Below, piece by piece: positions 800 to 37,348 of a stretch of DNA of 64,000 nucleotides. The notes under the pieces are model-generated. The model was not told the origin of the DNA. It was given only the letters and a program-made list of their open reading frames with translations, and searched no databases. The position numbers were made by a program, and so were the translations under genes. Every line of letters starts with the position of its first letter. The stretch's first letter is position 1. Origin of the DNA: Ignavibacteriota bacterium (GTDB taxonomy: Bacteria; Bacteroidota; Ignavibacteria; Ignavibacteriales; Melioribacteraceae); contig JADJGF010000001.1 of the NCBI GenBank assembly GCA_016708125.1, positions 3,465,902 through 3,529,901 of the forward strand, in the 5' to 3' direction.

Positions 800-1879
800 A
801 TGCAGAAATTTTCTAAAATATTAACCGGTTTTTCATTCTTAGACCAAAAATGGGGCGGAATTTATCCCGGCGGAAATTATTTAATTATTGGATCTAAAAA
901 TGCCGGCAAAACTTTGCTTGCTTTAAAAATGATTGAGAATTTCGTTTCAACAAATTTAACCACTGTATTAATAAGTAATCAAAGAATAAAAAATTTAGAA
1001 ATTCAAGCTTCATCGCTTTATTTTAATATTGAAGAACCAATTAAAACCGGAAAATTATTATTCCACAAAAATGAAGAAATTTTTAAATCGTTGGAATCAT
1101 TTAAAAGTTTTTTAAATGAAAAAAATCCGTCAGTAATTTTTGTTGATCAATTATTGCAAAATTCATTTTTCAGTTCTGCTGAAAAATATCTTCAAGTTAT
1201 AGAATTGTTGGAAGAAAAAAACATCACAATTTTTTCAATAAATTCTTTACCTCAAGATGAAAATTCAAAAAATCTTATAAAAGAAATTATTCAATATTCT
1301 ACCGGAATAATCCAACTTCAAAGAAGTTCGGAAAAAAGAATTTATTCGGGACAAATTACAATTAAACCCAATATTGGTCATATTGAAGGCGAGTTTGAAA
1401 CAAATTATAAAGTTGTACCGATTAAAGGATTTGTAACTCTTGCTGATAACGAAAATGATTTGTTGAAATTACTTTCCAAAGTAAATTCTGAGTATGACAT
1501 TTTATCTCAAAATCAAAAATTTGATTACACAATTATTTATGATTTTGAAGAATTCAAACTTTTAACGGAAAGTAGAAAATCTTACGCACAAAAAACAAAT
1601 TCGCAAGTAAATATTATTATTTATAAAATTAAGAACGAGATTGTTGGCGCAATTGAGTTATGCAGAATTATTCAAAAAGCATTAAATACCGGCGATAAAA
1701 TAAGTTATAAAAATAGTACGGTTTTTATTTTACCGCAGAATAATGAAGCTGAAGTTGTTGAAAAGTTATTAAAAAATCTTGATAAAAATATTGCGGATTC
1801 GTTTAAACATATTCCTGGCATAGAATTTTTAATTACAAAGCGAAAGGAATTTTTAACTCAAACGTTTAATTTAGATTAA
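800..1879 (+). CDS. KaiC/RecA-superfamily P-loop ATPase with C-terminal GGDEF-like (signature-less) domain
   Basis: Walker A GSKNAGKT, Walker B-like SVIFVDQL, and N-terminal FLDQKWGGIYPGGNYLIIG typical of KaiC/RadA-like ATPases. The C-terminal ~120 aa resemble a GGDEF fold but lack the GGDEF motif. Confidence 0.6.
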   Translation: MQKFSKILTGFSFLDQKWGGIYPGGNYLIIGSKNAGKTLLALKMIENFVSTNLTTVLISNQRIKNLEIQASSLYFNIEEPIKTGKLLFHKNEEIFKSLESFKSFLNEKNPSVIFVDQLLQNSFFSSAEKYLQVIELLEEKNITIFSINSLPQDENSKNLIKEIIQYSTGIIQLQRSSEKRIYSGQITIKPNIGHIEGEFETNYKVVPIKGFVTLADNENDLLKLLSKVNSEYDILSQNQKFDYTIIYDFEEFKLLTESRKSYAQKTNSQVNIIIYKIKNEIVGAIELCRIIQKALNTGDKISYKNSTVFILPQNNEAEVVEKLLKNLDKNIADSFKHIPGIEFLITKRKEFLTQTFNLD

Positions 1880-1883
1880 AAAT

Positions 1884-4808
1884 ATGACCATAACTGAACA
1901 AATATTGAATCTTCTTGAAATAAATGAAAATGCTCCGGCTTTGGTTCTTAACCAATTTGCAGATGTTGTTGCAAAAAATGATGTTTGGTCAAAATATTTT
2001 GGCAAAGCAGAAACTGGAAAAAGCTTTTATAATATTTTTGATAAAAATACTTCGCTTTTGATTAAAAGTAGTTTGATTGATTCTAAAACTTTTCTAAAAG
2101 TTAAAACAAGAGAAATTCAATATTTAGCTTCCGGAGAAATTAAATATTTTCAATTGGTAATTTCACCGTTCAAAATTCAGAATAATTTATATTTCTACTT
2201 TTTAATTTATGATGAAAATCATAAAAATGATTTTATTGTTTATCCCACAATTGATGATTTCAGCTATCATAAAAAATATGAATACATTTTCAATTTGTTA
2301 AAAACAGCGGATCCGGAAAATCAAATTATAAATAATCTAAAATATTATACTGAAATTGAGAAAGAACCGATTGCATTAAAGGATTTTTCAAATTTTATTT
2401 TGATGAACCAAAGTTTTAAATCATTTATGCTTCCGGAAGAAAGTAACCAAGAAATTCCACTTAATGTTAGAATTAAAACAAGCGAACTTTTGCTTATAAT
2501 TTATTCTCTCGAAAAAGAAATTTTTGATCCGCAAAATCATTTTATCATTGAAAATACTTTTCCAAATTCGGTAAACATTGCAGAAAGTAACAAAATTTTG
2601 GTATTTCCATTTATACGAAAAAATGAAACTCTTATAATTGGCAAGCTGGATTTGCAAGCAAAATTCGGAATAGTACCAAAAACGGAAAATCTTAAAAAAG
2701 AAGATCAGCAAATTATTAGCGAGCTGCCGACAATTATTTATGATCCGAATAATTTTGAAATTTTAGATACAAATAAACAGTGCGCAGATATTTACGGATA
2801 TGATTTAGATGAATTGAAATCGATGAATTTAATTGAATTATTTCTTCCGGAAGACATGCAGAAATTATTAAATCCGGAAGTAGATTTAAATAAAATTGAA
2901 TATAAACAGCTCAAAAAAGACGGAAATGAAATTCGCATAAATGTAAAAAGAGAAAATGTAGTTTGGGCAAATAGAAATGTAATTTTGGAAACAATTCAAA
3001 TTATAGAAAAAAATACAAATGTAATTTTGGATGAAAAAATTACCGAATTACAAAAGGATGAAGTAGTTAAAGATATTATTGGAAATGGAATTAATGAAGT
3101 AATTTCAGAAGAAACAATTTCGAATATTGAAAATTTTGAAACAGTAAAAATTGAAGAAGAAAAAATTCCCGAAGAAATTTTAGAAAATAAAATTATCGAT
3201 GAAAAAATTGAAGAAATATCAAATGGAATTTCATCTGAAGTAAATAAAATTTCTGAAGAAATAAAAGTTGATGAGAAATTTTCAGAATCAAAACTTAGTA
3301 TTGAGCAGAAAGAAATTTTAAAAGATAAAAAAGAAATATCGCCGTTTTTATCATTTCTGTTTCACGAATTGCTGACTCCCGTAAATGTAATTTTAGGATT
3401 TGTGCAAGAAATTATTGACAGCGTGGATAATCTTTCGGAAGAGCAGGAAGAATCGGCAAAAATAATAAAAGAAAATCAGCAGCTTCTTCTTCAAACAATG
3501 AATTCCGCAGTTCAATATGCAAAATTAGAAGAAAACCTTTTGCCAATTAAAGTTGAAGAATTTGATCTCAAAAATTATATTGTTGATATTGAAGAAAGTG
3601 TTTCGAGAATTGCAGATAAACAAAATGTGAAATTAAATTTTACGCATTCCTTTGAAAAATTATTAATTAAAAACGATAAACAAAAACTTTTAGCATCAAT
3701 AAGTTATTTTCTAAAACTCATTTTAACTCTAACCGAAACTAAAGAAATATTTATTTCATTTTATTCAACTGAAGATAGTTTGATAATTTCTGCAAAAGAT
3801 AAACTTTCCGGAATTTCTAATAATTTGCTGAATAATATTTTAGAACTTTATAATTCGCCGAAAAGTTTTGAGAATAATAATTTTGGATTATCATCAATTG
3901 CATTGCGGCTTTCACAAAAATTGAATGATGTAATTTTTGCAAAAGTTACAAATTTAACAACAGATAAAGAGAATACTGCTGCGTTAATAATTCCAAGCAA
4001 TATTGAAAATAGTAAAAATATTCTTCATGAAATAAATTTTGTAAACCCAATTTTAAATGAAGAAGTTGAATCTTTGAAAGAAATTACGATTGATAAATTA
4101 GATAACGATATTGATGAAATTGTAGAAGCAGAAAATGAATTGCATGAGTTTTCAAATGATATGTTTGATGAAGAAAATGAATTATCTGAATTTACTGATG
4201 AAATTATTCATGAAGAAAATGACGAAATAAAACTTGAAGACTCGGAAATTATTTTGGAAAATGAAAAAAATAATTCTGCAAATTCTGAAATGAAATATGA
4301 AGAAACCAAAATTATTTTTGAAGAACCCGAAATTGCAAATGAAATTGATGAAAGAATAATTGAAGATTTTAGCGAAGAAGAAATTTTAGAAAATGAAATT
4401 GAAACTGTAAATGAAGAGAAACCAATTAACAAATTTAAAATTTCTGATATTTCTTGTCTGTTTATTGATGATTCAATCGATTCGCAATTATTATTTAAAT
4501 CACAATTACATGATTTAAAACATTTGAGTATGGCATCAAATTTAATTGATGCATTACCGCTTTTAGAAAAATTCACATTTGATATAATTTTGGTTGATAT
4601 AAATCTTAATCATAAGTTTAATGGTTTTGATGCGCTGAAAATTATTCGTCAATTTAATGATTTTAAAACCACACCAATTGCCGCACTTACCGCATATCCA
4701 TTTGAAGGCGATAGAGAAAAATTCTTAATGTTCGGATTTACAGATTATTTTGTAAAACCATTGTTAAGAGATAATCTGCTAAATTCTTTCGAAAAAATTC
4801 TTTCGTAA
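1884..4808 (+). CDS. Hybrid sensor histidine kinase / response regulator (PAS-like, HisKA, degenerate HATPase-like, REC)
   Basis: H-box FLFHELLTPVNVILGF. C-terminal receiver with FIDDS, ILVDINL, ALTAY and FVKP. PAS-like segment IIYDPNNFEILDTNKQCADIYGYDLDEL. Two long acidic E/I/K/N-rich linkers. N/G1/G2 boxes are not recognisable. Confidence 0.75.
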   Translation: MTITEQILNLLEINENAPALVLNQFADVVAKNDVWSKYFGKAETGKSFYNIFDKNTSLLIKSSLIDSKTFLKVKTREIQYLASGEIKYFQLVISPFKIQNNLYFYFLIYDENHKNDFIVYPTIDDFSYHKKYEYIFNLLKTADPENQIINNLKYYTEIEKEPIALKDFSNFILMNQSFKSFMLPEESNQEIPLNVRIKTSELLLIIYSLEKEIFDPQNHFIIENTFPNSVNIAESNKILVFPFIRKNETLIIGKLDLQAKFGIVPKTENLKKEDQQIISELPTIIYDPNNFEILDTNKQCADIYGYDLDELKSMNLIELFLPEDMQKLLNPEVDLNKIEYKQLKKDGNEIRINVKRENVVWANRNVILETIQIIEKNTNVILDEKITELQKDEVVKDIIGNGINEVISEETISNIENFETVKIEEEKIPEEILENKIIDEKIEEISNGISSEVNKISEEIKVDEKFSESKLSIEQKEILKDKKEISPFLSFLFHELLTPVNVILGFVQEIIDSVDNLSEEQEESAKIIKENQQLLLQTMNSAVQYAKLEENLLPIKVEEFDLKNYIVDIEESVSRIADKQNVKLNFTHSFEKLLIKNDKQKLLASISYFLKLILTLTETKEIFISFYSTEDSLIISAKDKLSGISNNLLNNILELYNSPKSFENNNFGLSSIALRLSQKLNDVIFAKVTNLTTDKENTAALIIPSNIENSKNILHEINFVNPILNEEVESLKEITIDKLDNDIDEIVEAENELHEFSNDMFDEENELSEFTDEIIHEENDEIKLEDSEIILENEKNNSANSEMKYEETKIIFEEPEIANEIDERIIEDFSEEEILENEIETVNEEKPINKFKISDISCLFIDDSIDSQLLFKSQLHDLKHLSMASNLIDALPLLEKFTFDIILVDINLNHKFNGFDALKIIRQFNDFKTTPIAALTAYPFEGDREKFLMFGFTDYFVKPLLRDNLLNSFEKILS

Positions 4809-9080: not shown

Positions 9081-9452
9081 TTGGTCAAAAGGAGAAAAAA
9101 TATGGGAAAGGTTAAATTTACAACAGAACAAATCATAAACAAACTGCGAGAAGCAGAAGTAATGCATACGGAAGGAAAGAGTATAGATCTGATATGCAAA
9201 CAATTAGGAATATATGAACAGACATATTACAGATGGCGGAAAGAATATGGAAGCATACGAATAGATTAAGCAAAAAAATGAAAGTATTGGAACAAGAGAA
9301 TTTAAGATTAAAGAAGATTCGGGGAACTCATAGGGAGATTAAAACCGGAAGATGAAGAATTAAGACGATTAAGAAGAGAGTTGACAGACGTAAAAGAGGA
9401 GCGGGACATATTAAAAAAAGTTGTAGGCATCTTCTCAAAACGCGAGTCATGA
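9081..9452 (+). pseudogene. IS3-family orfA (HTH transposase subunit), interrupted
   Basis: ...YRWRKEYGSIRID ends at in-frame TAA 9267-9269. The expected continuation (KMKVLEQENLRLKK, then LKPEDEELRRLRRELTDVKEERDILKKVVGIFSKRES) is split over two frames. Confidence 0.65.
9413..9420 (+). promoter_or_regulatory. A7G slippery motif (IS3-type -1 programmed frameshift site)
   Basis: ttAAAAAAAGtt near the end of orfA, ~30 nt before the orfB ATG, as in IS3-family OrfAB fusions. Confidence 0.5.
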
Positions 9453-10324
9453 AATATAAATTTATTATGGAAAACAGAAAAGAATACAGACTTGGGAAGA
9501 TGTGTAAAGTATTAAATGTATCAAGGAGTGGGTATCATAATTATGTAAAACGAAGGTTGGGTCGACGGGAAAAAGAAGATAGTGTCTTGCTCATGGAGAT
9601 AAAAGAGATCCACAGAAATTCTCGAGGATTGTATGGAAGTCCGAGAATATATCAAGATCTGCGAAGACGAGGGCTAAAAATCAATAAAAAAAGAGTAGTA
9701 AGAATAATGCAAACAAACGGAATAAGAGCCAAAACAAAGAAAAAGTATAAAGTAACAACAAATTCGAATCACAGTTACCCGGTAGCGAAAAATTTAATTG
9801 GACAAGATTTCCGAACCACTGGATCAAACAAGATTTGGGTTTCAGATATAACATACATATGGACTAAAGAAGGATGGTTATATTTGGCATGTATACTTGA
9901 TTTATTTTCACGAATGATAGTCGGCTGGCATATAGATCAAAGACAGAACAGTTTATTAGTAACAACGGCAATTAGAAATGCATTAGTGCAAAGAGGAAAA
10001 AATCCCGGAATAATATTTCATTGGGAACAAGGAAGTCAATATGCATCAAAAGAGGTAAGGGATTTACTGGCTGCCAATGGAATAATTCAGTCAATGAGTA
10101 GAAAAGGAAATTGTTATGATAATGCTGTAATGGAAAGTTTTTTTCATACATTAAAAACAGAGTTGATTGGTTTTGAGAACTTTCAAACCAGAGAAGAAGC
10201 AAAAATGAAAATATTTGATTATATAGAAATATATTACAACAGGCAGAGAATTCATTCTTCAATTGATTATTTTACTCCTGTTGAATATGATAATAACTTA
10301 AATTCTAAATTAGTGGTAGTGTAA
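9449..10324 (+). CDS. IS3-family orfB (rve/DDE integrase core), probably inactive
   Basis: WVSDITYI (first D), GNCYDNAVMESFFHTLKTE (E). The expected HSDRGSQY box reads HWEQGSQY. The last codons and the stop are supplied by the IS256 end. Confidence 0.8.
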   Translation: MKYKFIMENRKEYRLGKMCKVLNVSRSGYHNYVKRRLGRREKEDSVLLMEIKEIHRNSRGLYGSPRIYQDLRRRGLKINKKRVVRIMQTNGIRAKTKKKYKVTTNSNHSYPVAKNLIGQDFRTTGSNKIWVSDITYIWTKEGWLYLACILDLFSRMIVGWHIDQRQNSLLVTTAIRNALVQRGKNPGIIFHWEQGSQYASKEVRDLLAANGIIQSMSRKGNCYDNAVMESFFHTLKTELIGFENFQTREEAKMKIFDYIEIYYNRQRIHSSIDYFTPVEYDNNLNSKLVVV

Positions 10325-10678
10325 AAAGTTTTGTGTAAATGGTTAATAAAGAGGTTTAATTAAATGCTGTGAAGCGTAGCGGAACAGCATTTAATTATGC
10401 AAAAAAATCACTAACTTATTAACCAAATCCGAAAGGAGATTACACAATGGAGCTCACCGAAAAAATGATCGAGCAACTAAAAGCCGATCTTACCAAAGCA
10501 AAAACATACGATGATTTAATGGGTAAAGACGGAGCTATTAAAAAACTATTAGCTGGAACTTTAGAACAAATGTTAGAAAGTGAACTAACCGAACACTTAG
10601 GATATGAAAATATTCACCAGTTGGCAAAAACAATGGTAATTATAGAAATGGGAAAACACATAAATCACTCAAGAATGA

Positions 10679-10694
10679 TCCGTTAGCTAACGGA
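10679..10694. repeat. Perfect 16-bp palindrome TCCGTTAGCTAACGGA (copy 1) inside the IS256 transposase
   Basis: Read directly. Contains TAG and TAA. Removing it gives aag aat gac ggt gaa att = KNDGEI in frame. Confidence 0.95.
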
Positions 10695-11614
10695 CGGTGA
10701 AATTGAGATTTCTGTCCCCAGAGACCGCAATGGTGAATTTGATCCAATAATTGTAAAAAGTATGAAAAAACAATTGGGCCAATAGAGAATAAAATCATAT
10801 CCATGTATGCAAAAGGAATGACAACTCGAGACATACAAACACATATTACAGAACTTTACGGAATAGATATTAGCCCTACTTTAGTTTCGAATATTACAGA
10901 TAAAATAGTTGTACTTGCCGAACAATGGCAAAATAGAATTCTTGAGAAAATATATCCTATAGTTTTCTTCGACGCTATCCATTACAAAGTAAGAGATGAA
11001 TCAAAGAAAGTAGTATCAAAGGCTGCATATACCTGTTTAGCGGTTGATATAGAAGGACACAAAGATCTACTTGGATTATGGGTCGGTGAAGCAGAAGGAT
11101 CAAACTTCTGGCTTAATGTTTTAACAGAACTAAAGAATCGAGGTGTTGAAGATATTTTCATTGCATCAATTGATGGATTGAAAGGATTCCCCGAAGCAAT
11201 AAATTCTGTTTTCCCAAAAGCTGAAATCCAGCTTTGTGTTATTCACCAAATTAGAAATACCCTAAAATATGTTGCTTCAAAAGACCAAAAGAAATTTATG
11301 AATCAACTAAAAGAAGTTTATAAAGCTCCAACTGAAGAAGCTGCTTTATTAAATCTTGACTCTTTGGAAGAAAACTGGACAAATAAATATTCTCTTGCTA
11401 TCAGATCTTGGAGAAATAATTGGAATAATCTTGCTACATTTTTCAAATATCCCCAAGAAATTAGAACGGTCATTTATACCACGAATGCAGTGGAATCTGT
11501 GCATCGTCAATTTAGAAAAGTAACTAAAAACAGAGCTCTTTTCCCAAACGATGATGCTCTTAAAAAAATGTTATATTTGGCTTACAGAGATTTATCTAAA
11601 AAATGGACGATGCC

Positions 11615-11630
11615 TCCGTTAGCTAACGGA
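11615..11630. repeat. Perfect 16-bp palindrome TCCGTTAGCTAACGGA (copy 2) inside the IS256 transposase
   Basis: Read directly. Removing it gives tgg acg atg cct cat aat tgg = WTMPHNW in frame with the conserved C-terminus. Confidence 0.95.
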
Positions 11631-11775
11631 TCATAATTGGGCGCTTATTCTTTCTAATTTTTCTGTTTATTTTAAGGATAGATTTCAGGAATTTTAATCA
11701 TGATAAATCCCATTTACACAAATTATTTTACAGACTCAATTAATTCGGAGTTTTTTATTTCTACAATATTAAAAA

Positions 11776-23849: not shown

Positions 23850-25097
23850 ATGACCAATTTTTTCTTCGAATTGAAAGAAGGTTTACTTATTTCTCTAAAT
23901 GCAATTAGAGCGAATAAAATTAGGTCTATTCTAACAACTTTAGGAATTGTAATTGGAGTTACTTCTGTTGTTTTAATGTCAAATGCAATAAAGGGAATTG
24001 ACAAATCCTTTCAAGACGGAATTTCCAGTTTTATGGGAACCGACAATCTTTTCATCGATAGATGGGCTTGGTTCAGTAACCTTCCTTGGTGGGAATTAAA
24101 TAAAAGAAAGCCTCTTGAAATGAAAGATTTTGAAAGGTATAAGGAACTTGCTGAATTACCGATTGCTGTTGCACCAATGCATGATGCTTCTGAAGTAACA
24201 ATGATTAAGGAAAATAATTCGATTTCAGATGCTAGAGTTTCCGGAACAAACCAAGATTACATTTATACAACAAATTTAGAATTCGAAGAAGGAAGATTTT
24301 TTTCTGAATTAGAAAGTAATGGAGCCAGACGTGTAATTGTTCTTGGTTATGAATATGCAGATAGATTATTCCCATTTGGAAATGCTATTGATCAAAATAT
24401 TCAACTCAATGGAAAGAAATATAAAGTTGTTGGAATATTAAAGAAACAAGGAAGTTTCTTGATGGGAGCGTTTGATCCAGATAATCAATCTTTTATTCCG
24501 ATCAGCGTATTATTTAAAGATTTTCATAGCAGATTTGGCGGAAGCGGTATTACAATAATATCGCGTGCTCCCAGTAATCAAATGGTTCCAGTTGTTAGAG
24601 AAGAAGCTATAGAAGTTATGAGAAGAATTAGAGGTTTGAAATATGACGAACCTGATGATTTTTCAATAAATCAACAAGATGCATTTTTAGAAATGATAAA
24701 TCAAAGTGTTGGTGTTATTCAAATTGCCGGTTTGTTTATAACCGGTCTAGCACTTTTTGTTGGTGCAATCGGAATTATGAATATTATGTTTGTTTCCGTA
24801 AAAGAACGAACTCATGAAATAGGAATTAGAAAAGCAATTGGTGCTAAACGAAGTGTAATTTTAAGACAATTTTTAGCTGAGTCTGCAATACTGTGTTTAC
24901 TTGGCGGACTAATTGGACTTTTATTAGCTGTAATTGGAGGAAAAATTATTGAACAATTTAATTTCCCAGTTGAAATGCAAATTGATTCAATAATTCTTGC
25001 AATAGGAATTTCTTTACTTACTGGAATACTTTCGGGATTGGCTCCAGCGTGGACTGCAGCAAAAATGGATCCGGTTGATGCTTTGAGGTATGAGTAA
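23850..25097 (+). CDS. ABC transporter permease, MacB/FtsX-like (paralog A1)
   Basis: N-terminal TM, periplasmic MacB_PCD-like domain, C-terminal FtsX region ERTHEIGIRKAIGAK...MDPVDALRYE. Confidence 0.9.
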   Translation: MTNFFFELKEGLLISLNAIRANKIRSILTTLGIVIGVTSVVLMSNAIKGIDKSFQDGISSFMGTDNLFIDRWAWFSNLPWWELNKRKPLEMKDFERYKELAELPIAVAPMHDASEVTMIKENNSISDARVSGTNQDYIYTTNLEFEEGRFFSELESNGARRVIVLGYEYADRLFPFGNAIDQNIQLNGKKYKVVGILKKQGSFLMGAFDPDNQSFIPISVLFKDFHSRFGGSGITIISRAPSNQMVPVVREEAIEVMRRIRGLKYDEPDDFSINQQDAFLEMINQSVGVIQIAGLFITGLALFVGAIGIMNIMFVSVKERTHEIGIRKAIGAKRSVILRQFLAESAILCLLGGLIGLLLAVIGGKIIEQFNFPVEMQIDSIILAIGISLLTGILSGLAPAWTAAKMDPVDALRYE

Positions 25098-26323
25098 TGG
25101 AAGTATTAAAAATTGCATTACAATCTTTAAAAACAAATAAACTCAGATCATTTTTAACTGTTCTCGGAATTATTGTAGGAATATTTTCAATTATTTCGAT
25201 AAGTACAATTTTATCTATGCTCCAAAATACAATTGAGTCAAATGTTAATTCTGGTTTAAGTTCAAACATATTTAAAATTTCAAGATTGCCGGCAACAATT
25301 ATGGGTGAAGAAGAATGGAATAAGGTTAGAAAAAGAAAAGATATCACAATTGATGAATATGAAAAATTAAAAGATAAATTTGAAAACGAAGTACAAAATA
25401 TTGGAGCAGAACAATCTACCGGTGGAAAAATATTTAAATACGGAAATAAAAAAACTAATCCGGATATTGGATTTGTTGGAGCCACAATAGAATTTTTTCC
25501 CAACAATCAATTAGTCGCTGCAGAAGGAAGAAATTTTAATAATCAAGATTATCAAAGATATGGTAAGGTTATTGTGCTTGGAGATGCACTTGCAAAATTT
25601 TTATTTGAAGAAAAAAATCCTATTGGTGAAGAAATAACAGTTGATGGAAATAAACTTACGGTTATCGGAGTTTTGGAAAAAAGAGGTGATATGTTTGGAC
25701 AAAGTCGCGATAATTTTGCAGTTACTCCATTAACAACTTTTCAGAATATGTTTGGCAAAAGAGCAAGAAGTATTACAATAGCAGTAAATCTTTTTAGTAA
25801 TTCCGACTATGAAAATGTTGTGGAAAAAGCTAAAGGTTATTTTAGAACAATACGAAAAATTGATGCTGGAGACGAAGAAGATTTTTCCATAATATCCGGA
25901 GAATCTCTTTTATCTGATATTGACAATATGACAAGAGGAATCAGAATTGGAGCTTACGTAATTGCACTTATTGCGCTTTTGGCAGCCGGAGTTGGAATTA
26001 TGAATATTATGCTGGTTTCGGTTACTGAACGAACAAAAGAAATTGGAATTAGAAAAGCAATCGGTGCAAAGAAAAAAAATATTCTCGTACAATTTTTAAT
26101 AGAATCGGTTGTACTATCATTATTTGGTGGTATTATTGGAATAATAATTGGGTTGATCGTTGGAAACATTGCCGGTTCTGCGTTAAATGCTAAAGCAACA
26201 ATTCCGCTGGATTGGGTTGCAATTGGTGTATTTTTATGTATAATTGTTGGTGTTGGATTTGGTACATATCCGGCTTATAAGGCTTCAAATTTAGATCCAA
26301 TTGAAGCACTTCGTTACGAATAA
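25097..26323 (+). CDS. ABC transporter permease, MacB/FtsX-like (paralog B1)
   Basis: Same architecture. Start overlaps the A1 stop (TAATG). ERTKEIGIRKAIGAK...LDPIEALRYE. Confidence 0.9.
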   Translation: MEVLKIALQSLKTNKLRSFLTVLGIIVGIFSIISISTILSMLQNTIESNVNSGLSSNIFKISRLPATIMGEEEWNKVRKRKDITIDEYEKLKDKFENEVQNIGAEQSTGGKIFKYGNKKTNPDIGFVGATIEFFPNNQLVAAEGRNFNNQDYQRYGKVIVLGDALAKFLFEEKNPIGEEITVDGNKLTVIGVLEKRGDMFGQSRDNFAVTPLTTFQNMFGKRARSITIAVNLFSNSDYENVVEKAKGYFRTIRKIDAGDEEDFSIISGESLLSDIDNMTRGIRIGAYVIALIALLAAGVGIMNIMLVSVTERTKEIGIRKAIGAKKKNILVQFLIESVVLSLFGGIIGIIIGLIVGNIAGSALNAKATIPLDWVAIGVFLCIIVGVGFGTYPAYKASNLDPIEALRYE

Positions 26324-26346
26324 TAAATTTTACAGAAAGGTTTTTT

Positions 26347-27591
26347 ATGTCACACTTCTTATTTGAACTTAAAGAAGGATTAATAATTGCACTTAATGCA
26401 ATTAGAGCAAATAAAATTCGTAGTATTTTAACTACTCTTGGAATTGTAATTGGAGTTGCTTCCGTAGTATTAATGTCAACCGCAATTAAAGGGATAGATG
26501 AATCGTTTCAATCTAGCGCAACAAGTATTATGGGTACGGATAATATCTTTGTTGATAAATGGGCTTGGTTTGGCACAGTTCCTTGGTGGGAATTGAGGAA
26601 TAGAAGAGATATTGGCATGGATGATTTTGAAAAATTTAAAGAACAAGCCACTCTTCCATTAGCAGTTTCTCCTAGATCAATAAGAAGAGAAACAACTACA
26701 CTTAAGGATATTGTTGTTGATGGATGTTTTATTGTTGGTACAAATCAAGATTATGTAAAAACTACAGATTTAAAATTTACCGAAGGAAGATTTTTTTCTG
26801 AAATTGAAAGCAATGCCGGCAGAAGAGTTTGCATTGTAGGCGGTGAAATTGCCGATAAATTATTTCCACAAGGAAATGGAGTTAACCAAGTAATTAAAAT
26901 TGGCGGAAATAAATATCAAGTTGTTGGAATAAATGATAAACAAGGAAGCTTTTTATTTGGTGATTTTAATCCGGATAATATGATTTATATTCCCATTGGC
27001 GCAATGTTTAAAGATTTTCAAAATAGACGTTGGGGCGGCGGAATTTCAATATGCGTACGAGCTCCAAATAATCTTTCGGTTCCGGCAGTTAAAGAAGAAG
27101 CAATTAGTATAATGAGAAGAATTCGAGGATTAAAATATGATGAGCAAGATGATTTTTCTATCAACCAGCAAGACGTTCTTCTTGATATGATTAATCAGCA
27201 AGTTGGTGTAATTCAAATTGCCGGATTATTTATAACCGGACTGGCACTTTTTGTTGGAGCAATTGGAATTATGAATATTATGTTTGTTTCGGTAAAAGAA
27301 AGAACAAGAGAAATAGGAATTAGAAAAGCAATCGGCGCAAAAAAACGTACAATTCTCGGACAATTTTTAACTGAATCAGCTGCTATATGTTTAATTGGGG
27401 GATTGATTGGTTTATTTATTGCTGTACTTGGTGCAAAGATTATTGAACAATATAATTTTCCGGTTTCAGTTCAAGTTGATGCTGTTGTTATTGCAATTGG
27501 AATATCTTTGTTAACTGGTGTATTATCCGGCTTAGCACCAGCATGGACGGCTGCTAAAATGGATCCCGTAGATGCATTGAGGTATGAATAA
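26347..27591 (+). CDS. ABC transporter permease, MacB/FtsX-like (paralog A2)
   Basis: Closely matches A1 in the TM segments (FELKEGL.I.LNAIRANKIRSILTTLGIVIGV). The periplasmic domain is more diverged. Confidence 0.9.
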   Translation: MSHFLFELKEGLIIALNAIRANKIRSILTTLGIVIGVASVVLMSTAIKGIDESFQSSATSIMGTDNIFVDKWAWFGTVPWWELRNRRDIGMDDFEKFKEQATLPLAVSPRSIRRETTTLKDIVVDGCFIVGTNQDYVKTTDLKFTEGRFFSEIESNAGRRVCIVGGEIADKLFPQGNGVNQVIKIGGNKYQVVGINDKQGSFLFGDFNPDNMIYIPIGAMFKDFQNRRWGGGISICVRAPNNLSVPAVKEEAISIMRRIRGLKYDEQDDFSINQQDVLLDMINQQVGVIQIAGLFITGLALFVGAIGIMNIMFVSVKERTREIGIRKAIGAKKRTILGQFLTESAAICLIGGLIGLFIAVLGAKIIEQYNFPVSVQVDAVVIAIGISLLTGVLSGLAPAWTAAKMDPVDALRYE

Positions 27592-28811
27592 TGGAAATAT
27601 TATTAGTAGCATTAAATTCGCTTAAGGCGAACAAGTTAAGATCACTTCTAACAATTCTTGGAATTATTGTAGGAATATTTTCTATTATTACAATTAGTAC
27701 AATAGTTTCAATGCTTCAGAACAGTATTGAAGAAGGAGTTTCTCAATTGGGACAAACTACTTTCCAAATACAAAAATATCCTGCGATGATGGATCGTGGA
27801 GATCGGGCAAAATATAGAAACCGTAAAGATTTAACAATTGACGAATATTATGAACTTCGTGATAAACTTCAAGGAGAAGCCGAAGCTGTTGGAGCAGAAC
27901 AATGGGATTTTGGTAAATTATTTACTTATGAAAACAAGGAAACAAATCCTAATGTACAATTAGTTGGCTGCACTCCGGAAGCATTTCCAAATAATAAATG
28001 GATTGCTGAATTCGGTCGTAATTTTAATTACACAGATGTTAATCGATATGAAAAATGCATTGTTCTTGGAAAGACTCTTGCCGAAACACTTTTTGAAGGA
28101 GCCGATCCTATTGGAATGGAAGTTAAAGTCGATAATAAAAAATTAAAAGTAATAGGCGTTTTAGAAAAACAAGCAACTTCTTTTGGAAATGATAAAGATA
28201 ATTTTGCAGCAATTCCATTAACAACTTTCCAAAGTTTTTATGGAAAATATAGCGAAAGCGTAAATATAACTGTTAGTTCATTCAGCAAAGAAGATTATGA
28301 TGATGTTATTGAAAAATCCGTTGGATATTTTAGAACTATTAGAAAAGTTCCGCCTGGTGAAGAGGATGACTTTGCAATTTTTTCGAATGAGTCTGTTTTA
28401 AATGATATAAATAGTATGACTGCCGGAGTTAAAATTGGAGCTTATGTAATTGCACTAATTGCTTTACTTGCTGCAGGAATTGGTATCATGAATATTATGC
28501 TTGTATCAGTTACTGAAAGAACAAAAGAAATTGGAATTCGCAAAGCAATCGGCGCAAAAAAGAGTAATATATTAGTACAATTTTTAATTGAATCGGTTGT
28601 GCTTTCTTTATTTGGCGGAGTTATAGGAATTATAATTGGATTAATAGTTGGAAATCTTGCCGGTTCTGCAATTGGCGGAGAATTCTCAATTCCTATGGAT
28701 TGGGTAGCAATTGGAGTTTTACTTTGCGTAATTGTTGGAGTTGGATTTGGAACCTACCCGGCTTACAAAGCTTCCAATCTTGATCCGATTGATGCACTAA
28801 GATATGAATAG
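27591..28811 (+). CDS. ABC transporter permease, MacB/FtsX-like (paralog B2)
   Basis: Closely matches B1. Start overlaps the A2 stop (TAATG). Confidence 0.9.
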   Translation: MEILLVALNSLKANKLRSLLTILGIIVGIFSIITISTIVSMLQNSIEEGVSQLGQTTFQIQKYPAMMDRGDRAKYRNRKDLTIDEYYELRDKLQGEAEAVGAEQWDFGKLFTYENKETNPNVQLVGCTPEAFPNNKWIAEFGRNFNYTDVNRYEKCIVLGKTLAETLFEGADPIGMEVKVDNKKLKVIGVLEKQATSFGNDKDNFAAIPLTTFQSFYGKYSESVNITVSSFSKEDYDDVIEKSVGYFRTIRKVPPGEEDDFAIFSNESVLNDINSMTAGVKIGAYVIALIALLAAGIGIMNIMLVSVTERTKEIGIRKAIGAKKSNILVQFLIESVVLSLFGGVIGIIIGLIVGNLAGSAIGGEFSIPMDWVAIGVLLCVIVGVGFGTYPAYKASNLDPIDALRYE

Positions 28812-36092: not shown

Positions 36093-36887
36093 ATGGATAA
36101 AACTTTAATAAATATTATTGTTGATGAAATTGAAAAAGAAATTGTTAGTACAGATCAAAGGCATTATTCAGAAATTCAAGAATCTGAACTTTTAAATTTA
36201 CGATATAGTGAAGAACTTGATAATGATTCAAACTTTTTAGCTTACAAAAATAGAATTTTTTCTCATGGATTTGTTTTAAGAAAAACTAATCAAGATAAAT
36301 ATATTTTCTATAATGAAGTTCTAAAATTTATTAATAATATTTATAAACCGGATATACTAAGAAAAACAATTGGAAATAATAAAATTGTTTCGAAATATGA
36401 AACAACTAAGGTTTTATCAATTCTGAATGCTGAACATTATTTAAAAAATGAAATTGAGGAATTGTCTAAATTAATTCAGTTAAATCTTCAGAAAGAAACG
36501 AAAGAAGAAATTAAAGAGGAATTACCGGACCTGATAAATGGTCCTGAAGAAAATCCAAGAGAAAGGAAAATTTCAAAATTTATTGAAGACTGTTTTTTAC
36601 ATTTGGATGGTGAAATTGTCAATTTTTTTAATGTGGAATTTGGAAATAAAAAAATTAATAAGCAACAAAAAGCTTTTCTTTGTAATGAAGCTGCAGTTCA
36701 AAAATTTAGTTTTGAATCAGATAAAAATTTGATCAAAATGGCAATAGGGAAAAACTTAAAATTAAATTTGGAAAAGGACATCATAAAACAGGTTTCGAAC
36801 CTTATTCATAATGCTGAAAACAATCATGAAAAAGGGAAAATATTGTTATTTTTAAGTAGTGAACTTGCGAAAAAGATAAATAAATAA
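36093..36887 (+). CDS. Hypothetical protein (element-encoded)
   Basis: ORF with an RBS-like AAAGG upstream. No recognised motif. Confidence 0.5.
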   Translation: MDKTLINIIVDEIEKEIVSTDQRHYSEIQESELLNLRYSEELDNDSNFLAYKNRIFSHGFVLRKTNQDKYIFYNEVLKFINNIYKPDILRKTIGNNKIVSKYETTKVLSILNAEHYLKNEIEELSKLIQLNLQKETKEEIKEELPDLINGPEENPRERKISKFIEDCFLHLDGEIVNFFNVEFGNKKINKQQKAFLCNEAAVQKFSFESDKNLIKMAIGKNLKLNLEKDIIKQVSNLIHNAENNHEKGKILLFLSSELAKKINK

Positions 36888-36898
36888 AAGGGTGAGCG

Positions 36899-36967
36899 TC
36901 AAACCTCACTTTTTACCTCAAACCTCACTTTTTACCTCAAACCTCACTTTTTACCTCAAATTTTACC
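36899..36967. repeat. Tandem 19-bp repeat TCAAACCTCACTTTTTACC x3 plus a 12-bp partial copy (iteron-like)
   Basis: Three perfect head-to-tail copies at 36899-36917, 36918-36936 and 36937-36955, then tcaaattttacc. Confidence 0.95.
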
Positions 36968-37030
36968 TTAAAACGATTTGAACAACTTTATTTAAATAAC
37001 GTTATTTGAAGTAACATTTTTGGATATTAA

Positions 37031-37348
37031 ATGACTTCAGATCAAGAAAAACAGTTAGACGATTTAAATAAACAAATTCAAGAAATGAAATCAGATAGAA
37101 TAAAATTTGATAAAGAATTAGAAAAATATAATTACAATCCAAATTATAAGGCAAAAAAAATGGAAGAAAAAAAAAGTGAAATCGAGAAATTAAAACTGGA
37201 AGAAAAGCGTATGTTTGATTTGCATCGTGAATATTGGAACAAACCCAATCTTTCACAATGCGAGCTTGGACTTTTTCAAAGAAATGCTACAGAATTAAAG
37301 AATATTAGAGTTAAAATTTCTGAAGAGGAGAAAAAATTAAATGGATAA
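37031..37348 (+). CDS. Hypothetical coiled-coil protein
   Basis: K/E-rich heptad-like sequence. No motif. Confidence 0.45.
   Translation: MTSDQEKQLDDLNKQIQEMKSDRIKFDKELEKYNYNPNYKAKKMEEKKSEIEKLKLEEKRMFDLHREYWNKPNLSQCELGLFQRNATELKNIRVKISEEEKKLNG

Follow-up and report, generated by a model that had tools for sequence, protein, structure and literature searches.

Within a 64,000-nucleotide stretch of contig JADJGF010000001.1 (the window), which belongs to a bacterium of the phylum Ignavibacteriota, a broken transposase gene of the IS256 family of insertion sequences (IS) carries two copies of the same 16-bp palindrome, TCCGTTAGCTAACGGA, here named P. The two 16-mers are probably copies of a dispersed, apparently mobile and non-autonomous micro-element that landed twice in a dead or dying IS256 copy. 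Its copies are found chiefly between the genes of Ignavibacteriota and of several further phyla, most of them in the FCB group. Alignments show that P arrives as a whole 16-bp unit that takes the place of usually three target nucleotides, without duplicating the target and without requiring homology to it. It persists only where it is harmless, and it is over-represented in hairpin loops, among them those of terminator-like hairpins and of P itself and, in non-functional tRNA copies, the D- and T-loops.

Two copies of P in a broken IS256-family gene

P occurs exactly twice in the window (G+C content 28.8 %), at positions 10679-10694 and 11615-11630, and both copies lie inside the IS256-family pseudogene. 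The original prediction, made from the letters of the window, had described them as identical, perfect and found nowhere else in the 64 kb, and this is borne out by an exact and approximate search, which returned no further copy in the window even at up to three mismatches (0.10 matches expected). As had also been claimed, the perfect palindrome contains TAG and TAA, and stops fall in two of its three frames. It folds into a 6-bp stem with a 4-nt loop, with a hairpin energy of -4.3 kcal/mol as DNA.

Three-frame translation places the transposase pseudogene at 10448-11697 on the forward strand, with 406 codons once its four frame-breaking lesions are repaired. The repaired open reading frame (ORF) matches the Pfam family Transposase_mut (PF00872) with E=3.5e-115, covering profile positions 5-377 of 379, and its product shares 93 % identity with intact proteins of 408 aa from Melioribacteraceae and related metagenomes, one of which bears the NCBI label "IS256 family transposase"; it has the single ORF of about 400 codons of the Mutator/IS256 type (PF00872) that defines this family. 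The whole element spans approximately 10322-11737 (forward strand; ends approximate), as delimited by aligning its DNA with L002, L003 and the contig L001, which holds only the IS, and both its length, within the 1.3-1.5 kb of the IS256 family, and the terminal inverted repeats at its ends (...TGTGTAAATGG and CCATTTACACA...) agree with that assignment. Besides the P copies, the gene is broken by two 1-nt deletions, which makes it a pseudogene. DNA alignment and reading frames place the first in an A-run at 10607-10610 (forward strand; GAAAAT against GAAAAAT in homologues) and the second in an A-run region at 10755-10759 (forward strand; GTAAAAAG against GT[T/A]AA[A/G]AAG). Both losses, which had been described as single missing A residues, are confirmed against three homologous DNA copies; the base lost at 10755-10759 is not necessarily an A. 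P may have killed the gene, or it may have landed once the gene was already dead.

Alignment to homologous DNA copies gives a net gain of 13 nt at each of the two sites. The first copy replaces about 3 nt (TAA, across the Asp-Asn codons GAT AAC), homologues reading GAT AAC/AAT GGT, while the second also replaces about 3 nt (inferred to be the TAT of CCT ATT CAT), with CCT ATT NNN AAY TGG in the homologues. At the protein level, nine close intact homologues (403-409 aa) have one residue more at each site, KND-N-GEIE and TMP-I-[RQKH]-NW. This residue is Asn in 89 of the 90 motif-matching sequences from the 120 closest homologues at the first site; at the second, two residues stand between MP and NW in all 112 motif-matching close homologues (IR, IQ or IK, with IH in 2). 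The simplest reading of these alignments would be 16 nt in and 3 nt out, that is, GA-TAA-CGG at the first site and CC-TAT-TCAT at the second, the middle triplet being the one replaced. Exact removal of the 16 nt, which had been said to restore the conserved sequence, does restore the reading frame; it does not give back the ancestral sequence, since one codon is missing at each site. The comparison with intact homologues that had been proposed as a check therefore yields one extra residue per site, yet a net gain of 13 nt in the window copy, so that the view of the palindromes as insertions rather than divergent coding sequence holds. An insertion of 13 nt into a TGA triplet was considered and rejected, as it needs extra substitutions at the second site and three at nested copies. 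The outer flanks of the two window copies are alike in inverted orientation (ATGA before P, TCAT after P).

Several features of the IS256 copy and its surroundings were recorded alongside. In the leader hairpin loop of other copies of this IS family (L003 at about 1380-1400; L076, minus strand) sits a 21-25 nt hairpin insert (CCCCGCTATTGCGGGG... or CCCGATATTCATCGGG...ATAAACT), which the window copy does not have (10360-10390), and the leader stems differ by compensatory changes. To the left, an IS3-family transposase ORF (rve, HTH_21) at 9449-10324 stops a few bases from the left end of the IS256 element, so that the two IS abut, and on the right follow the genes for ClpP and trigger factor.

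Dispersal of P and the signature of its insertion

Searching the complete genome or metagenome for the 16-mer and tabulating its contexts had been suggested as a check, and such exact and approximate searches identify P as a dispersed repeat whose contexts are almost all outside IS. An exact-match scan of one genome per species in GTDB, the figures of which are lower bounds, returned at least 124 copies in at least 120 stretches, and a metagenome scan covering only about 3-6 % of the possible flank combinations returned at least 113 copies in 102 contigs. Among the matches listed, the hosts are overwhelmingly Ignavibacteriota (Ignavibacteria, Ignavibacteriaceae, Melioribacter), the other labels being Bacteroidota, Neomarinimicrobiota, WOR-3, Caldithrix, Chlorobiota, Dehalococcoidia and occasionally other groups. 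The metagenome-assembled genome (MAG) MNYQ01 accounts for about 15 P-bearing stretches among the matches listed, with fewer than 0.001 expected by chance, and the 2.6-Mb contig CAWEJJ010000003.1 for at least 5 copies. In the 2.9 million viral contigs of IMG/VR, P was matched 13 times against about 13 expected, by a rough estimate of our own.

Nearly all copies of P are intergenic, which points to selection against harmful insertions. Once the 16-mer is masked, almost none lies in a long open frame, the lone apparent exception, in L056, being the radA/ispD junction. The orientation of the genes on either side resembles that of intergenic DNA in general, and an A5 or T5 run adjoins about 23 % of the copies. 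In 15 % of copies the flanks form a perfect stem of 6 bp or more around a centred P, against 1 % of control positions, as in AAAAAAAACA[P]TGTTTTTTTT and AGATTCCA[P]TGGAATCT, and the hairpins concerned include terminator-like ones. In the flanks, position -1 is a purine and position +1 a pyrimidine in 79 % of copies each, a mild preference without a conserved tetranucleotide. The ATGA flank of the window, together with ...CTCA at D-loop sites and ...TCGA at a T-loop site elsewhere, fits a weak preference across copies for T or C at -3 and a purine at -1.

The exchange of 16 nt for 3 is most readily traced where P has entered P. In the nested copy of L039, TCCGTTA[P]AACGGA, as in the doubly nested copy of L046, the outer copy retains exactly 13 nt in every nested layer, which means that 3 nt were replaced, and in the nested copy of L007, T[P]TTAGCCAACGGA, the replaced triplet is CCG. 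A coding example is found in an intact DUF5131 gene (L081, 3630-4394, protein P0121), in which P is in frame and reads Pro-Leu-Ala-Asn-Gly. The protein reads QCN-PLANG-QNV at a place where QCK[KE]QNV stands in twelve homologues, so that 16 nt came in and 4 went out (net +12), giving six residues instead of two and a net gain of 4 residues, and the public record annotates P in this gene as translated. PLANG can be read through P in four other long ORFs as well (L006 4276, L069 6826, L078 1173 and L079 593), the homologue check applying to L081 only. Across the window, nested and tRNA cases P does not make a target duplication; target bases are lost instead.

The commonest variant of P, TCCGTCAGCTGACGGA, occurs 8 times and is symmetric, hence still a perfect palindrome, and a one-sided intermediate leading to it is not among the variants with up to two mismatches in the genome-scan loci listed. 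Single one-sided changes such as TCCGTTAGCCAACGGA do occur, chiefly within tandem arrays, and look like later mutations. The palindrome is thus kept as it varies, which would follow if either one half is copied from the other in propagation or a symmetric protein dimer selects both. As a separate observation, other perfect palindromes of 14-16 nt with TCC(C)G...C(G)GGA ends (TCCGTCAGCTGACGGA, TCCCGATGCATCGGGA, TCCCGACCGGTCGGGA and TCCCGCATGCGGGA) are present in the same intergenic regions (L025 at 560, 3843, 4144 and 4989; L007 at 5538 and 5927; L017 at 3390), which suggests a wider class of such palindromic elements. Palindromes of the window centred on TCCGGA were dropped as relatives of P, this hexamer being simply common there (43 occurrences against 3.4 expected from base composition).

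Partial tRNA genes carrying P, and further observations

Directly upstream of intact tRNA genes we found truncated 5' tRNA copies that run from the acceptor strand through the D-arm up to the anticodon stem. They are preceded by upstream spacer that is repeated along with them and stand singly or in 1-6 tandem units of 65-88 nt. In every truncated unit the GYT of the D-loop (GCTCA-GYT-GG) is swapped for P or a one-base variant of it, and this replacement is seen for tRNA-Val(TAC), Val(GAC), Ala(GGC), Asp(GTC) and Thr(TGT) in different metagenomes. Such arrays lie at L236 ~1712-2270 (minus strand), L179 10552-10790 (minus strand), L193 526-860 and L173 3621-3825, with further ones at L143, L144, L154, L169, L175, L209 and L223; an Rfam scan of six of the array loci detected the intact tRNAs only. 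The T-loop is affected in a displaced 3' copy of tRNA-Asn, the GTC of which is replaced by P, and at the duplication junction of L236 we noted a CCTT microhomology.

The simplest account of the arrays is one of ascertainment, in which tRNA loops are hot targets and hits in essential genes are lethal. Because a hit in an essential tRNA would be lethal, hits become visible only where a partial duplicate exists, whether it was there before or arose by illegitimate recombination. A protective role as decoys is possible for the P-plugged copies.

Around the tRNA loci we recorded a second micro-insertion of 18 nt, which consists of two 9-nt mini-hairpins (e.g. TCCGAAGGA+TGCTTTGCA, in either orientation) and which, in defective tRNA copies whose D-loop holds P, separates TTC from R57 of the T-loop (L067 152-175; L140 658-680; L236 ~2324 and 2420, minus strand); it is also present in the L076 leader. 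The L140 copy is a full-length disrupted tRNA-Val adjoining an intact one. Small GIY-YIG ORFs of about 80 aa (PF01541) were found between an intact tRNA gene and a displaced, P-bearing partial copy (L038 700-960; L219 602-847; L044 4275-4795), an arrangement that looks like a tiny tRNA-targeting homing element; these ORFs adjoin P in only 3 loci, always via the displaced tRNA fragment. Downstream of the tRNA-Val array of L236, at 1992-2180 on the minus strand, lie two matches to the Rfam riboswitch family SAM_alpha, whose scores of 45.1 and 38.6 bits exceed the gathering score; this family is unexpected in the Ignavibacteria/Bacteroidota group to which we take this contig to belong.

Elsewhere in the window, palindromic hexamers are unevenly represented. 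TCCGGA is in excess as stated above, as is GCCGGC (11 against 0.6), while ACTAGT is missing (0 against 21) and GTATAC and TCTAGA are nearly so (1 against 21 each), a bias to which codon usage and restriction avoidance possibly contribute. Positions 23850-28811 hold four tandem paralogous genes of about 410 codons with 70-80 % DNA identity over long stretches (repeat families D1-D5), and a 19-nt tandem repeat, TCAAACCTCACTTTTTACC, fills 36899-36969 with about 3.7 copies in the short gap between an ORF ending at 36887 and an ORF starting at 37031.

Possible origins of P and its place among known repeats

As a mechanism for the mobile micro-element we propose that a structure-specific enzyme moves P in trans, handling it as a hairpin or as a self-annealed short duplex, and that this enzyme would make two cuts in the target, separated by about 3 nt, and join P between them. 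Candidates would be an HUH/RAYT-like single-strand (Y1) transposase (RAYT, tyrosine transposase associated with REP; REP for repetitive extragenic palindrome), attractive because such enzymes recognise hairpins, or a nuclease combined with end joining or a ligase. As the two IS256 sites lack hairpin potential, the hits there are regarded as off-target, and either the gene was already dead and could tolerate them or they put it out of action. Of the four explanations that the original prediction had offered, a micro-insertion left by an unknown hairpin-related transposition or repair process comes closest to the data.

Several observations weigh against a mobile element of this kind. Movement is inferred from comparisons only, and filled and empty polymorphic alleles within one population were not seen. 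To our knowledge, no transposition chemistry characterised so far replaces target bases rather than duplicating them. In the tRNA-Met fragments of L044, P replaces about 10 nt, so that the rule of 3 nt either admits exceptions or has been obscured by later deletions. No hairpin potential was found at the two IS256 target sites, so that targeting of hairpins is a bias and not a rule. The sameness of the 16-mer across phyla is unexplained. Among 275 ORFs of 90-420 aa within 1.5 kb of P copies, a Pfam scan detected no transposase linked to P; these neighbours are ordinary housekeeping genes, e.g. for GAPDH, PGK, MreB and ABC transporters. Clustering of 1560 ORFs by BLAST gave a sole recurrent cluster of about 30 long ORFs (27 loci), which we take to be secreted proteins sharing a secretion-tail domain. 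Finally, tblastn with approximate IS200 and IS608 TnpA queries revealed no Y1/RAYT-like homologue in 1.8 Mb of flanks.

Only tentatively would we go further and regard P as the smallest mobile element yet seen, moved by an unrecognised structure-specific enzyme that swaps about 3 nt of a hairpin loop with a preference for tRNA D- and T-loops. On that proposal the P-plugged tRNA arrays would be the only survivable outcome or decoys, and horizontal spread of the machinery would explain the identity across phyla.

Of the rivals to the mobile element, a templated filler of repaired breaks survives best, in which each 3' end is lengthened by the same 8 nt, templated by RNA or protein, or a 16-mer annealed to itself is captured, P being a repair scar. 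We consider it unlikely. The small and variable loss of target (3, 4, sometimes about 10 nt) without microhomology resembles capture during end joining, a single change of template would produce the symmetric variant, and a conserved template would give the identity across phyla. Yet the bias to hairpin loops, tRNA D- and T-loops and P itself would need breaks exactly there, and no reverse transcriptase or end-joining candidate is linked to P, none having been examined. The repair filler overlaps with the mobile micro-element and differs from it mainly in the source of the 16 nt.

P might instead be what is left by excision, if a larger transposon with the termini TCCGTTAG...CTAACGGA, or one with hairpin intermediates, came twice and left 16-bp palindromic scars. 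Such a scar would be two identical 8-nt halves head to head, half-unit duplications are indeed present (L033, L101 and L113), and a symmetric variant is expected if the inverted ends of the element change. Against this, isolated 8-nt halves occur at chance frequency. The 0.85 Mb around 126 copies contain TCCGTTAG and CTAACGGA 15 times each where 13 are expected, and most of these are point variants of the full palindrome. P is therefore not made of the ends of a longer transposon, and no full-length parent was found in the same 0.85 Mb. Excision footprints normally retain a target duplication. Here 3 nt are lost and no duplication is retained, and the exactly 13 outer nucleotides of nested copies fit insertion of a whole unit, all of which makes a footprint improbable in our view.

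We rate as very unlikely the proposal that a host system silences transposase genes with stop-bearing palindromes. In its favour stand the two stop-bearing P copies in one 1.25-kb transposase gene of a 64-kb window and two copies elsewhere, one within the untranslated leader of a second IS256-family element (L076), the other adjoining a decayed IS256 fragment (L168). The latter two are, however, the only IS256-associated ones among about 250 other copies, which are almost all in ordinary intergenic DNA, tRNA fragments or hairpins. The IS256 junctions of the window do not recur in any metagenome contig found in a search with degenerate flanks, and thousands of intact relatives of the window IS exist (8000 matches), so that silencing is not general. 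If P is tolerated in neutral DNA alone, the chance of finding two copies in one pseudogene would be a few per cent.

Removal or bypass of P at the RNA level (a mini-intron or a ribosome hop), which would leave the gene functional, can hardly be sustained. The stable hairpin would suit it, and a GAT to GAC hop over 16 nt is formally possible at the first site. The second site, by contrast, offers no matching take-off and landing codons, and the ORF is not intact as in bypass of the T4 gene 60 type, with one codon gone per site and two further frameshifts. P is moreover nearly absent from coding DNA, and in the intact DUF5131 gene it is in frame and annotated as translated.

That P is an assembly, library or construction artefact such as an adapter we discount almost entirely. 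A perfect stop-bearing palindrome does look like a synthetic stop linker, and each copy has at one junction a GATC reminiscent of BamHI or Sau3AI linkers. The 16-mer nevertheless recurs in MAGs of many unrelated projects, with contig names suggesting SPAdes, MEGAHIT and polished long-read assemblies. Its strong confinement to certain phyla and its chance level in viral contigs also speak against an artefact. A GATC stop linker was also rejected in its own right, with GATC at only one junction per copy and none in the ancestral sites.

For the window, we conclude that the palindromes are real insertions, lying in an IS256 copy that is a pseudogene. If P is truly mobile, it brings the known size limit of a transposable unit down to 16 bp. 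It further serves as an exactly searchable marker with which the enzyme can be hunted by phylogenetic profiling over thousands of MAGs, and as a source of frameshifts, five-residue PLANG insertions and hairpins in Ignavibacteriota and their kin it matters for annotation. The truncated tRNA arrays together with P suggest that a selfish element and essential tRNA genes interact in a way not yet described. The 14-nt core of P is absent from 8.3 million full texts, and limited keyword searches gave no equivalent description.

Among the known systems close to P are the REPs, imperfect palindromes 20-40 nt long that bear a tail and an unpaired tag (GTAG or CGTC). They often stand in inverted pairs and are species-specific, and those of the GTAG type flank a RAYT gene (PMC3733652). 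Like REPs and REPINs (REP doublets forming hairpins), P is a short palindromic, hairpin-forming, non-coding repeat that is mostly extragenic, occasionally found in genes and thought to move in trans (PMC3733652), and in both compensatory variation keeps the stem. P is likewise dispersed and multi-copy, at a copy number that is low against classical REPs. It differs in being a perfect palindrome of 16 nt, short of the 20-40 nt of a tagged imperfect one, with neither tag nor tail, in standing mostly single, in being identical across phyla and in replacing about 3 nt. Another palindromic repeat, the Rickettsia palindromic element (RPE), is mentioned in the same source (PMC3733652).

Also comparable are the small dispersed repeats (SDRs) of Nostoc and Anabaena, reportedly described by Elhai et al. 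in 2008 under the title 'Very small mobile repeated elements in cyanobacterial genomes', which are said to measure 21-27 nt, to be confined to cyanobacteria and not to be perfect palindromes. They share with P a length below 30 nt, the hairpin, nesting, insertion between orthologous sequences, a mobility inferred from filled and empty comparisons and the lack of a known enzyme. P differs in its 16 nt, its occurrence in other phyla, its defined exchange of 16 nt for 3 and its favouring of tRNA gene loops. RPEs measure about 100-150 bp, are restricted to Rickettsia and can sit in frame in functional genes, adding a peptide segment. The in-frame copy in the DUF5131 gene, reading PLANG, resembles them, with the difference that P has 16 bp and that its in-frame copies are exceptional. 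Miniature inverted-repeat transposable elements (MITEs; Correia/NEMIS, Nezha) are 50-500 bp long, with terminal inverted repeats matching a parent IS and target-site duplications. They are, like P, non-autonomous, dispersed, hairpin-forming and able to affect neighbouring genes, whereas P has neither the terminal inverted repeats of a parent IS nor a target-site duplication.

HIP1 (highly iterated palindrome 1) and DNA uptake sequences are thought to arise via point substitution with selection or via biased uptake. With P they have in common that they are short palindromic words far above chance in particular lineages, whereas P is extra DNA, with 13 or 12 nt added relative to homologous sequence. 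HIP1 of cyanobacteria is such an over-represented short palindromic word (PMC5861425). Taken together, P acts like the smallest palindromic repeats known, the REPs and the cyanobacterial SDRs, and its in-frame copies act like RPEs. Should its replacement chemistry and the targeting of tRNA loops be confirmed, P could be categorically new.

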